Assembly (NCBI GenBank): GCA_951406725.2
Contig: OX597821.1
Span: 35,774,001-35,838,000 of the forward strand
Length of the DNA stretch: 64,000 nt
Direction: 5' to 3'
Source: Octopus vulgaris
Lineage: Eukaryota
Within the stretch, counting starts at the first letter, position 1; the number at the start of each line of letters is the position of its first letter. This document shows, one piece after another, positions 4,410-45,640 of this stretch. The notes beneath the pieces are model-generated. The model ran no database searches, had not been told where the DNA came from, and saw only the letters and a program-made list of their open reading frames with translations. The position numbers were made by a program, and so were the translations under genes.

Positions 4410-4455
4410 CCGTGAGATGCGAGTATTTCAGAGTATATCTGGTCTTCGGTCACGG
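4410..4455 (-). ncRNA. Type I hammerhead-like motif with CCGAAGA core
   Basis: Minus strand: ccgtga-CCGAAGA-ccAGAtatacTCT-GAAAT-actcgc-ATC-tcacgg. Perfect 6-bp stem I and an AUC triplet. Confidence 0.65.
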
Positions 4456-4517
4456 ACACTTACGAGCTGATATAAAATATAAATTAAAAATTATATAATA
4501 TAATAATAAATTATATA

Positions 4518-5445
4518 TACTCTTACTCCCTTTTACTCTTTTAATTGTTTCTGTCATTTGACTGCGGCCATGCTGGAGCACCGCCTTTAGTCGAGCAAAT
4601 CGACTCCAAGACTTATTATTTGTAATGTAAGCCTAGTACTTATTCTATCGGTCTCTTTTGCCGAACCGCTAAGTTACAGGGACGTCAACACACCAGCATC
4701 GGTTCTCAAGCGATGGGGGGGAGTGACAAACACAGACACACACATACACACACAAACATACATATATATTTATATGTATATTGGAAGGTTTGGAGATGAT
4801 GTACAGGTATTATATATTAGAAGAAATGAGGTAATCAGAAGATCGGGTGGTTTATATTTACAGATATTTATTTATATATTACATTTTTTACATATATATC
4901 ATATCACTTAGATCATTAGCGCTTTCTCCCATTCTAGTGGGGTTTTCAATTCAAAATAAGTTCCTTTCTGGGGAATTTTAATCATTTAATAGTTTCGTAG
5001 TGGTGGGGAGGAATGTAAGACAGTACAAGAGGGTGAGGTGGATGAGGAGAAAGTGAGAGAGAGAACATGTGTGTGTGTGTGTGTATGTGTGTGTGTGTTT
5101 GTATCTGAGGTGAGTGCTAAAGAGAAAGAGGGGAAGGGAGAGGGAAGAAGAAGGAAATAATTTTTTTGGTCTGCTGGACAGAATATTGATTCCAAGGGGA
5201 TTCTAAGAATTTCAGCTTTGACCACTTCACAGTGTCACTGAGTGTGTGGTGGCGGGGAGGTAGGCCATTATATATATATATGTGACGCGCTTCTTTCAGT
5301 TTTCATCTACCAAATCCACTCACAAGGTTTGGTCGGCCCGAGGCTGTAGTAGAAGATACTTGCCCAAAGTGCCACGCATTGGGACTGAACCCGGAACCAT
5401 GTGGTTCGTAAGCAAGCTATTTACCGCACAGCCACTCTTACGTCT
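4518..5445 (-). mobile_element. tRNA-derived SINE split into two parts (4518-~4780 and 5283-5445) by a ~500-bp insertion in its internal (TA)n tract
   Basis: Both halves match the full-length SINE copies at 10153-10590 and 44767-45174, in the correct order and orientation. Confidence 0.8.
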
Positions 5446-6284
5446 ATATGTTGAAAATATTTTTGCGTGTATATAAGATTTTATCTATGATTGTGCTGCA
5501 AAAAGCATTTACTCTCCACAGTATTACAGATGTAAATATTCTGAGAATACATATGAGAAGATGTAAATATTCTTGCGATCAGATTGTACTTTATGTAGCT
5601 GTTACACCATGTAGCTTAATTCTCTAAAGAAAATCATTGCCGCCCCAACAAATTTGCTACATATCCTGTATTACTTCTACTATCAAGTTTTGTAACACAG
5701 TCATTCAAGCGCTGTCATGTGTAGCATTTTGTTCGTATGTAGTTTATTGTTGTTTAGGTAGTTTCCAAATTATAATTTTACGAAACATGTTCAAATTCAC
5801 TGACGTAGGATAATAGTACTTGTGAATACTAGTGTGGAGAATATCGTTGAAATTATACTGCTATGTAATATTCATACGAGGCTGCGTTTTGCTGTGATTA
5901 CTTAACCGTAGGCCTAAACTGATCGAGAGATGGTATGATAGAAGACATTTCAAATCTGATCATACCGTTTCTTTCATAGGAGAAACACATGATCATTTGA
6001 TATAACATTTTTCCTCAGAAAGCACCGTGTGATGTAACGGATATTTAGCCACTATGTTAAGCAGATTGAGAAACAACATAAAAACACCTCTCTTGCATCT
6101 GTAAGTGCATAAATATTTAATTCTTCTACCGTTTTACTCTCTATATCCTGTACAAACATACATGCATACATACATACATGCATATACATTTATAAAAAAT
6201 CATATGCGTACATGTATAAATGTATATGATATTATATATATATATGTATATACATGTATATATATATATATATATATATATAAA

Positions 6285-6490
6285 TGGACGCGCAATGGCT
6301 CGCTGGTTAGGACAGTGGACTCGCGGTCGGAGGATCGCGGTTTCGATTCCCAGATCGGGCGTTGTGTGTTTATTGAGCGAAAACACCTGAAGCTCCACGA
6401 GGCTCCGGCATGGCGGGGGGGACCCCTGTTGTACTCTTTCGTCCGAACTTTCTCTCACTCTTTCGTCCTGTTTCTTGAGTAACGCTGAAA
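6285..6490 (+). mobile_element. tRNA-derived SINE (different family)
   Basis: Box A/B-like head TGGCTCGCTGG...GGTTTCGATTCC followed by gtgtgtttattgagcgaaaacac. Related to the copy at 26673-26925. Confidence 0.65.
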
Positions 6491-6944
6491 AGAGCGCATA
6501 TATATATATATATATATATATATATATATATATATATATATATATATATATATATATATATATATATTATGTTACAGATAATGAAGTAAATTTCGAACGC
6601 CAGATTCCTTATATGTGAGAAGTACAGGGATCGATTTCCTGTAAATGCCTACTGACAACATTTTTTCCGCCTTTTAGAGGAATTTAACCAATTTTCTAAA
6701 CTCTTTGTAATCAAAACTCTTTATATTCGACGCTTCTAAGTTTGCTTATAAGATATACACATATAAATACACATATACATATATACATATATACATATAT
6801 GCATACGTACGTACATACATACATATAGGTATACATTCATACACACACACACACACACACACACACATATATATATATATATATATATATATATATATAT
6901 ATATATATATATATATATATTTATATATATATACATACAAACAT

Positions 6945-7560
6945 ACATACATATACATATGTATTCCTGGCTCAAAAGGTATCCTGAAAGGCTATGGAGA
7001 CAAAGTTCTGTTCTTTTACAGGGCTTGGAAAAACTATGCGACCGCTGAACAAAATGTTAATTAACTGGTCTCCTGTTTTATTTACCTATAATACTCCTAT
7101 ATCGTATTGTATGCCATACTATATATATATATATATATATATATATATATATATATCAGAAAATGTTTGAAATCTTTGTACAATTGGGTATATATGATAA
7201 AGGAAAAGAGTGTGTTTTTTTAAACTAGTGAGATTGTATGTTGTATAACATTTGGGATTGTATTAAACGCATTTTAGAAATAGTAGTAGTAGTAGTAGTA
7301 CATATATATATATATATATATATATATATATATATATATATATATATATATATATTATATATGTATATATATATATATATATACATACATACATATACAT
7401 ATGTATTCCTGGCTCAAAAGGTAACCTGAAAGGCTAGGCTGGAGACACAAAGTTCCGAGTTCTTTTACAGCGCTTAGAAAAACCATACGACCGCTGAACA
7501 AAATGTTAATTAACTGGTCTTCTTGTACTTTTTTTGTTACCTGAAGCGTAATACTTCTCA
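6945..7560. repeat. Two diverged direct copies (~6945-7090 and ~7385-7535) of a mariner-end-like sequence
   Basis: gtattcctggctcaaaaggt...ttcttttacag.gctt.gaaaa...gaccgctgaacaaaatgttaattaactggtct occurs twice and resembles the MITE at 39718-39934. Confidence 0.75.
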
Positions 7561-8111
7561 GTATATCTCAGTATATATATATACGTATATATATATATAT
7601 ATATATATATATATATACGTATATATATAGTAGTAGCAGCAGCAGCAGCAGCAGCAGCAGCAGCACCAGTAGTAGCAGTAGTAGTAGTAGTAGTAGTAGT
7701 AGTAGTAGTAGTAGTAGTAGTAGTAGTAGTTATATATATGACAAATGAAAGACGGAAGATGGAATATAGGAGAATTATATAAATATATATATATGTAGAG
7801 AAATAATAGTAGTAGTAACATATATTCCTACTATATATTTGTAAAAAGGGCGGACGGTGCCTCACAAGCAGTTGCGCAGGCAAAAGTGTTAGTAAATGTT
7901 GTCAGATTGAGCTGAAAATTTCCGTAACTATGTTTAAAAGTGGTGGAGAGTTTACTTGGCAACTTTGAGTTTTCTGAATTAGGGCAAAATTACTCATCTT
8001 TAAAATGCGGCCCGAGTGGACGGAGTAGACCAAGTAGAATGAAATCGGGTGATAATACTAATATATATATATGTGTGTGTGTGTGTGTGTATGTATGTAC
8101 GTACGTATATA

Positions 8112-43764: not shown

Positions 43765-43932
43765 ATAACTTATAAAGAAGGGCAAAAGAAAAAAAAAATT
43801 CTAATGCCAAATACGGTGAAAACAGACAGATCGTCAATATAGTGATGGATTATATGGGTATATACGATGTGTCTGTTTTCGGCATATTTGGCATTAGAAT
43901 TTTTTTCTTTTGCTCTTGTTTATAAGTTTTAT
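43765..43932. repeat. Inverted repeat (~65-bp arms) near the 5' truncation of the PLE
   Basis: aacttataaa...gcaaaagaaaaaa.attctaatgccaaata...gaaaacagaca and tgtctgttttc...tatttggcattagaattttttcttttgc...tttataagtt. Confidence 0.85.
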
Positions 43933-44404
43933 ATATATACATACATATATATATATATATATATATATATATATATATATATATATATATATATATATGT
44001 CTGAATGTATGTATGTATTTGTGCACGCAATTTCATCCTCATGTGCACATAGGTGTATGGATGCATACATATATATTTAGACATTTATACCTATAAATAT
44101 ACGTATATATATACAGGCATATGTACATATATATACGTGTGTGTGTGTGCGTACATATACTTCCTCGTATCACACACCTACACCTGCACATATACAAATA
44201 TATGCATATCCGTATAAAACTAGGGGACGTCTGCATGAAAGTAGCACTTATGCAACGTACACAGTCTTACACTCATATACATATGTGCATACACATATAC
44301 ACATATATACATATAAAATATATACATACACATACATGTATTCACAGTCTTACTCATTCACACAATTGAAAAGTAACAAAAGAATAAATGAATATATATA
44401 TATA

Positions 44405-44699
44405 CTAGCAGTATCGCCCGGCATTGCTCGGGTTTGTAAGGGAAATAACTATATAAGCATTTTTAGAGAGTTACTTCCCTTATTTAATAGCAAAAAAATG
44501 CATTAAAAATGGGAAAAATTGATGGTAATTTTTTTCAATCGTAGACTCATCGTAGACGCCGCTAATACCCAGAAGGGCTCGATATGAATCACGACTATAA
44601 GATACTCGCTTTTGGTTAAGCTGCACCGCAAAATGTGGGAGTAGTTAGGAATCTAAATCGTAGGAGACAGACACACAACTTCACTTTTATATATAAAGA
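44405..44699 (-). mobile_element. Non-autonomous Helitron-like element
   Basis: Minus strand: A|TCTTTATATATAAAAGTGAAGTTG...CCCGagcaatgcCGGG-cgatactg-CTAG|T. Confidence 0.75.
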
Positions 44700-44766
44700 T
44701 ATAAATAAAAAATATATATTGTTAAGACATATGGGAAGGTTGTGCGGAAACATAGCAAAAATGCGG

Positions 44767-45174
44767 AGGCGTAGGAGTGGCTGTGTGGTAAGTAGCTTGT
44801 TTACCAACCACATGGTTCCGGGTTCAGTCCCAGTGCGTGGCACCTTGGGCAAGTGTCTTCTGCTATAGCCTCGGGCCGACCAACGCTTTGTGAGTGGATT
44901 TGGTAGACGGAAACTGAAAGAAGCCCGTCGTATATATGTATATATATATGCGTGTGTTTGTTAGTGTGTCTGTGTTTGTCCCCCCTAGCATTGCTTGACA
45001 ACCGATCCTGGTATGTTTATGTCCCCATTACTTAGCGGTTCGGCAAAAGAGACCGATAGAATAAGTACTGGGCTTACAAAAGAAGAAGTTCCGGGGTCGA
45101 GTTGCTCGACTAAAGGCGGTGCTCCAGCATAGCCGCAGTCAAATGACTGAAACAAGTAAAAGAGTAAAAGAGTA
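44767..45174 (+). mobile_element. Full-length tRNA-derived SINE
   Basis: Box A/B head, internal TA/TG tract, (AGTAAAAG)n tail. Confidence 0.9.
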
Positions 45175-45179
45175 TTAAA

Positions 45180-45640
45180 TCCGTCATCTTGGGTGCAGGG
45201 GCCAAAACCGTCACAGTTATTTTGTGACATATGAACATGATCCAAAAATTCAGTTCTTGAATTCAGACATGTAGCTGGGTCCATGGAACTTTTCGAGATG
45301 TTCCATCTTTCCATTTTACAAAGAGCGCACTTTCCACTACCGTTGGTATAAGGTTTACACGTGGCCAAGTTCGTCCAGTAAATCCTGTAGCTAATACCTT
45401 GTTCTTTTAAAAACCATATATAACTGAATAATTTGGTATATTTTTCATTTCAATATGGTTGCGTGTATTTTTATCTTTTTTCCTTCTTTCTTTCTACCTA
45501 TTAGAGTAACTTCCCTTTAATTTAAAGGTTTTTCATAGCATCTATTGCCACAAATATCCGACGAGAATGCATCATAGCTCCTCGCTCCGACATTCGAAAC
45601 TCTAGAATGACAACTTCATGTTTGTCCTAAATTATACACA
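45180..45640 (-). mobile_element. Second Naiad-like PLE 3' fragment plus an inverted pLTR carrying a CCGACGA hammerhead (45545-45613, + strand)
   Basis: TCKPYTNGSGKCALCKMERW..SKSSMDPATCLNSRTE parallels the C-terminus of 42268-43659. 45520-45640 is an inverted copy of 41600-41730. Confidence 0.8.

Follow-up and report, generated by a model that had tools for sequence, protein, structure and literature searches.

Is a cytosine at position 4 of a hammerhead ribozyme core a sign of decay, or can it be the inherited state of the retrotransposons that carry the ribozyme? The question is raised by a 64,000-nucleotide (nt) stretch of the Octopus vulgaris contig OX597821.1 (35,774,001–35,838,000, hereafter the window), in a 2.8-Gb, microsatellite-rich genome, where a preliminary description placed six heptamers reading CCGANGA or TCGACGA in hammerheads of Penelope-like elements (PLEs), that is, with C in place of U at core position 4 (C4 and U4 below). 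All six are present where it put them, with cores starting at 4449, 8635, 12683, 41693 and 42065 on the minus strand and at 45558 on the plus strand. The flanking families were named A (hammerhead 42003), B (41631 and 45545), C (4410), D (12648) and E (8588), and five of the six sites sit in families whose normal state is C4. Tens of thousands of PLE copies, including one family that has only just multiplied, carry C4.

Six cores and the state of their families

Every site has relatives across the genome, hence none of the six is a chance match. First-look searches returned 276 relatives for the 4410 region, 509 for 12648, 430 for 8588 and 148 for 42003, and family patterns matched 5,930 (A), 118 (B), 40 (C) and 7,304 (D) times genome-wide, with 0 matches in the reversed control. 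A relaxed hammerhead descriptor gave four matches in the window, two of them with CC, and missed four of the six sites; 100 shuffles gave no CC or CT match. Two stricter descriptor scans of the window recovered none of the six. No hammerhead family appeared among the best 150 of 199 Rfam matches to the window at E ≤ 1, the rows seen being microsatellite noise, and a search of a viral contig collection found no relatives. Totals below come from the search program, and figures over 100 rows are hand counts of the first 100 listed pattern matches in genome order.

The hammerhead of family A, subfamily A4, is a type I motif at 42003–42076 on the minus strand (C4 core 42065–42059) with a long bulged stem II, an extra pyrimidine ahead of GAAA and a near-palindromic stem III, and it belongs to a very young element; cleavage of this copy is predicted after 42014 on the minus strand. 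Its open reading frame (ORF; 42268–43659, minus strand) encodes reverse transcriptase (RT) and GIY-YIG domains and is free of stops, which agrees with the unbroken ORF of the preliminary description, but it is 5′-truncated and covers residues 246–708 of the 708-amino-acid (aa) full protein P0002, at 100% identity. The full unit (locus L136) holds this protein in a single ORF, RT first and GIY-YIG at the C-terminus, within a tandem period of 2,591 nt, and is thus shorter than 3 kb. Read by eye, P0002 has RWK, DKT, a CxCX5C linker, and CxxC and CxH near its end, and CCHH is absent; Pfam gave a weak GIY-YIG match to the truncated protein (E 0.0077) and none to the full one. Insertions have a (TA)n target and include partial tandem and inverted 5′ pieces. 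By these sequence features we assign family A to the Hydra clade of PLEs, following the clade description in PMC8557442 (here and below, statements on cited papers refer to their accessible passages).

Family A4 has multiplied recently with C4 in place. The last 160 aa of its protein are 100% identical in at least 150 copies (all 150 scored matches), a 281-nt DNA query matched at full length and top score in 15 of 40 scored matches, and in 30 loci chosen by the protein alone C4 was found in 36/36 core rows (overlapping loci counted twice). Family A4 contigs from sequencing runs of four organism labels show no other letter at position 4, and contigs of the family D ribozyme region occur in four sequencing runs. 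No RNA run was listed among these matches, which are contigs from which ends, strand and expression cannot be read. Arrays of at least four near-identical full-length A4 units, spaced about 2.59 kb apart, lie at G000:C1:57208887-57222545 and G000:C3:37228261-37236262.

Family B, with positions 4 and 7 left free in the pattern, had C at position 4 in 78 of the first 100 of 118 listed matches (U 17, A 5) and C at position 7 in 82 of the same rows (U 15, other 3). Its two window hammerheads, at 41631–41706 on the minus strand (C4 core 41693–41687) and at 45545–45613 on the plus strand (C4 core 45558–45564, where stems III and I have lost a short piece), are the 3′ end and an inverted 5′ piece of a single old Hydra-clade insertion, and therefore represent one event, not two. 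A remnant of the family B endonuclease end, 60–69% identical to the family A protein, lies at 45166–45445 (minus strand). The whole region 41570–45640 is nested, the old family B insertion being broken by a repeat resembling a short interspersed nuclear element (44767–45171), another insert, (TA)n and the young family A copy; family A inserted into the B insertion later.

Families C and D tell the same story. A core-free pattern matched family C 40 times, with C in 29, U in 9 and A in 2, and with G5 changed to A (G5A) in 8, and the aligned blast rows (35 kept from 39) gave C 27 and U 8; in family D, aligned rows (n = 37) gave C 30 and U 7, with G5A in 7. The preliminary description had the stems of most sites well paired; for stem II this holds in these two families, but not in their window copies, where stem II is decayed both in the family C hammerhead (4410–4455, minus strand, core 4449–4443) and in that of an old subfamily of D (12648–12689, minus strand, core 12683–12677), which has a degenerate inverted partner at about 12684–12783 on the plus strand. 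Family E differs: among 21 rows kept from 25, U4 was found in 20, C4 in none and C3 in 20, so the core at 8588–8640 (minus strand) is a private decay of this copy and stands outside the C4 set.

The claim that C4 occurs in at least four flanking families is thus borne out by A, B, C and D, and the claim that it is not decay holds for their sites and fails for 8588, the only one of the six with the U4 family state that had been named beforehand as speaking against it. The further argument, that a change creating a CpG runs against the usual mutational bias, does not stand, and we dropped it as support for C4: free position 7 behaves in the same way, since families B, D, E and H likewise carry there a C that makes a CpG. 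Decay of the C4–G5 CpG on either strand predicts that U4 and A5 should be about equally frequent, as observed in the old families C and D. Genome-wide, a G5A pattern gave 1,695 matches (control 833), the roughly 860 above control being scattered and heterogeneous. RNA editing as the source of C4 found no support in these data.

Proteins link the other C4 families to A to different degrees. Hydra-type proteins lie upstream of the hammerheads of both B, whose pieces are close to A (48–78% identical), and D, which is distant from A (33–42%), old and young D being 63% alike. For family C, the link comes from a single locus with a 36% endonuclease remnant 760 nt upstream, and none was found in eight longer C regions.

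Switches between subfamilies and other hosts

Position 4 changes between sister subfamilies, and in both directions. Among the first 100 of 5,930 core-free matches in lineage A, rows of the young stem II type had C4 in 61/64 and those of the older types U4 in 32/36. A tree rooted on B, in which position 4 was masked, built from the 43 of 105 copies with homologous flank and with A4 limited to 8, runs from A0/1 (U4) through A2 (U4) to A3 (C4) and A4 (C4), with median distances of 0.13 for A2, 0.04 for A3 and 0.00 for A4. Among the first 100 of 7,304 matches in lineage D, U4 was found in 57/57 rows with A at position 11.1 and C4 in 41/43 rows of the other subfamilies, and this U4 subfamily, the largest recent one of D, nests inside C4 ones (57 copies, short alignment). 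Lineage A therefore went from U4 to C4, and lineage D from C4 to U4. The view of C4 as an inherited feature is upheld within subfamilies (A3/A4, B, C, older D and part of H) and not as a single trait of all these PLEs.

A protein FastTree of 58 rows, from which metagenome loci lacking a hammerhead or with an open frame below 450 aa had been removed, placed the Octopus vulgaris lineages outside 53 U4 rows with support 90, on long branches and with two short fragments included. It may fit a single early origin of C4 in B, C and D, or do without one; the history as a whole would need at least three gains and at least one loss. Over the genome, Hydra-type patterns with C4 had 11,849 matches (control 410) against 14,165 with U4 (control 507). 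The C4 search also turned up CCGA in two further small families of Hydra-type motifs (L267, L275, G000:C1:4903684, C1:12586027).

Fifty aligned homologues were used to search metagenomes, and the best 80 of 395 candidates yielded 78 loci of other hosts. Scanned for hammerheads with positions 3 and 4 free, these Hydra-clade loci had U4 in 66, A4 in one and no hammerhead in 11, hence C4 in the element's own repeat in 0/67; many are near-copies, with about 44 distinct high-scoring motifs. C4 is strongly enriched in the Octopus vulgaris genome. In another host, a single-copy C4 hammerhead of different design lies just upstream of a U4 Hydra element (L189:2168). Two metagenome loci (L201:2602 and L214:4051) have Hydra-type hammerheads with a natural G3–C8 swap of the core pair, which is not named in the PLE literature found, and two more (L195:2400 and L208:2103) show the known U3–A8 covariation.

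A second group of motifs in the genome has the minimal hammerhead design, whose pattern gave 29,819 matches (control 1,255). Families H, I and J share this design, with an extra base after A9 and a two-base palindromic stem III, and family F had U4 throughout the rows listed for the same pattern. Family H (first 100 of 12,605 matches) had C 72, U 26 and A 2 at position 4, with G5A in only 3, and its U4 copies share linked letters, so that C4 and U4 are both subfamilies; its tree is unrooted and sets no direction for the switch. Family I (first 100 of 17,493 matches) had U at position 6 in 96/100, and position 7 takes all four letters. Loci of family I (e.g. L464-L493) carry a Neptune-type endonuclease upstream of the hammerhead, GIY-YIG with a CX2-5CxxC linker and CCHH. 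Family H, for which a single locus has an endonuclease of 58% similarity lying 2.8 kb upstream and whose 3′ region resembles those of I and J, is probably Neptune-type as well. Judged by sequence, the U-turn is loosened more widely in Octopus vulgaris PLEs, by C4 and, in family I, by A6U.

The window holds members of these families and further U4 motifs. A U4 copy of family H, which has both C4 and U4 subfamilies, lies at 34792–34826 on the plus strand, and a family I hammerhead with the A6U core, the second U-turn variant, at 36779–36814 on the minus strand. An inverted pair of Hydra-type hammerheads, 97% alike, occupies 52618–52850, its family G member at 52773–52817 (plus strand) having the canonical U4 and the partner at 52651–52695 (minus strand) A4. 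U4 hammerheads occur in the window at 52778 (+), 34796 (+), 11524 (−) and 31575 (+); those at 31575 and 11524, the latter related to family H, are hammerhead-like motifs, as is a doubtful one at 1557 (+).

Fold and the likely effect of C4

The motifs have a type I fold, three helices around the core with stem I open, and at family level the core of the C4 families and subfamilies is canonical except at position 4. C3, G5, A6, G8, A9, G12, A13, A14, A15.1 and U16.1 are fixed at subfamily level in A, B and D. In the stems of A and B, 85% of cells are paired (31–50% in slid controls) and 6/18 pairs are changed on both sides. The B rows of this alignment are shifted against A in stem II, and because of the misregister RNAalifold recovered no shared fold from it. 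With a near-palindromic stem III, a dimer is predicted to be favoured over two monomers by 2–12 kcal/mol. In family D, a GNRA loop (GGAA to GCAA) caps a stem II of just two pairs, and the 10.1–11.1 pair is A-U, A-G, A-C or A-A by subfamily, A-A accompanying the return to U4.

The imino proton of U4 closes the U-turn, and C4 lacks that proton. On balance, and with modest confidence, we regard the motifs as the pseudo-long-terminal-repeat hammerheads of PLEs, in which C4 is inherited within subfamilies, has been gained and lost repeatedly, and likely slows cleavage to a level that is tolerated. A core without the closing proton would be expected to cut more slowly, and the palindromic stem III may let the motif work in dimeric form or together with the protein that the element encodes. 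If most copied templates are uncut or re-joined, selection would keep the fold and the catalytic guanosines and hardly the rate, and position 4 could then drift between the two pyrimidines in source copies.

This reading is favoured by selection on the rest of the core, whose columns stay the same between subfamilies while others change and whose G5A form is rare beside C4 and U4, by stems that keep pairing, by the relaxed U-turn of family I, by what is known of U4C, by the slowness of PLE hammerheads, by the dispensable cleavage of Poseidon and by read-through of the cleavage site. In a viroid hammerhead, U4C lowered activity in vitro and infectivity was kept (PMC3088659, citing Ambros and Flores 1998), and those of PLEs cleave slowly and probably as dimers (PMC4209133; PMC6765202). 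In a Poseidon element, the hammerhead cleaved only with protein present; catalytic mutations left insertion in vitro normal, and the substrate was mainly uncut RNA (PMC11167929). Of the 30 family A loci holding the 5′ untranslated region, 26 continue past the upstream cleavage site and no locus begins at it, a count that is blind to uncut versus re-joined templates and in which several loci are units of one array.

Several points weigh against slowed but tolerated cleavage. All the steps that concern its rate are inferred, and sequencing contigs show no ends. Conservation of the core, where the commonest letter changed between subfamilies of A, B and D in 0/20 columns versus 63/159 others (Fisher p 1e-4), was measured by a test that takes columns as independent, pools three lineages and uses a short alignment in which the oldest A group has n = 3 copies, and recognition of the shape by a protein, with no cleavage involved, would produce it too. 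PLEs with U4 commonly read through the site as well, so that read-through does not discriminate, and a tolerant position 4 predicts C4 in other hosts, yet none of the 67 repeats has it. C4 in the youngest A subfamily is accompanied by a weakened stem II base (G-U or a bulged U), which, together with the stem II of only two to three pairs in D, could mean no activity at all.

It is conceivable, though we think it unlikely, that C4 and A6U motifs no longer cut and that they retain a shape which serves the RT-endonuclease protein as a signal for binding or folding. Two U-turn positions and the 10.1–11.1 pair vary freely in amplifying subfamilies, no copy in the 30 loci starts at the cleavage site, Poseidon inserts in vitro without cleavage (PMC11167929) and Naiads spread without canonical hammerheads (PMC8557442). 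However, G8, G12, the C3–G8 pair and the UH site are fixed in all amplified subfamilies examined, and U4C is active enough for a viroid (PMC3088659). Rather less probable still is compensation of C4 by the dimer, a long stem II or the element's own protein, with near-normal cleavage and a neutral U/C position 4. The predicted dimers, protein-assisted cleavage of a PLE hammerhead (PMC11167929) and switching in both directions would fit, but no second change accompanies C4, four different stem II/stem III designs carry it, and U4 is retained in other hosts; moreover, in a mutational scan of a type III hammerhead, single U-turn mutants had low activity that no second change rescued except the C3–G8 swap (PMC9901934).

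Positive selection for slow cleavage in Octopus vulgaris, by which C4 or U6 sources out-replicate U4 as more long uncut templates survive, seems improbable to us. At least three gains of C4, C4 in the youngest burst (A4) and U6 in family I, the largest counted, speak for it, whereas the largest recent D subfamily is back to U4, families E, F and G remain U4, and free position 7 is likewise often a CpG-forming C. That U4 copies acquired C4 independently, by mutation after they had inserted, is very hard to believe beyond the 8588 copy, for which it holds: C4 stands in every core row beside near-identical A proteins and, when position 4 is left free, prevails in B, C, D and H, and this origin was rejected for the five sites with a C4 family state.

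More speculatively than the slowed but tolerated cleavage that we prefer, PLEs of two clades might have tuned their ribozymes down or off independently at the U-turn, by C4 in at least five families and U6 in another, with uncut templates favoured by host or PLE proteins. The hammerhead would then be turning into an RNA scaffold while the elements spread, with sister subfamilies recording both directions; we consider this possible but short of probable. Matched natural pairs that bear on the role of the hammerhead in PLEs are found here (A2/A3, two young D and two H subfamilies). As these differ at one near-invariant letter of the catalytic pocket, and the C4 family A4 has intact, near-identical full-length copies, cleavage rate versus transposition becomes directly testable. 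Searches based on CUGA also miss a large share of the hammerheads in some animal genomes, Hydra-type C4 nearly equalling U4 here.

Relation to known hammerheads and elements

Natural U4C is a recognised hammerhead variant (PMC3088659). The viroid substitution is the same as the one described here; there, however, it is a sequence variant of an RNA replicon, and here the standing state of whole retrotransposon families, which seems to be unreported. We found no literature report of U4C or CCGANGA in PLEs, although Lunse et al. 2017, on PLE hammerhead variants, may show C4. The string CCGANGA was not found in the accessible supplement text of PMC4209133, nor was anything on position 4 in the accessible parts of PMC3376415 or a 2026 retrozyme preprint.

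The minimal metazoan PLE hammerheads of Cervera and de la Pena 2014 (PMC4209133) have the design of families H, I and J, for which low activity is expected; their core variant is U3–A8, whereas C4 and U6 are fixed here in families of more than 10,000 copies. The Poseidon element PAc of Anolis (Frangieh et al. 2024, PMC11167929) shares with family A copies that extend past the cleavage site, but it belongs to another PLE clade and has a canonical core in the passages seen, with protein-assisted cleavage and insertion without cleavage in vitro. The Hydra-clade PLEs of Craig et al. 2021 (PMC8557442) resemble family A in their type I motif near the 3′ end, RT plus GIY-YIG in less than 3 kb and (TA)n, and also in the palindromic stem III design and an odd pair at the base of stem II. 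In their File S2, all 26 of 26 Hydra rows, found with a canonical descriptor, read CUGA, whereas several families of Octopus vulgaris read CCGA and switch by subfamily.

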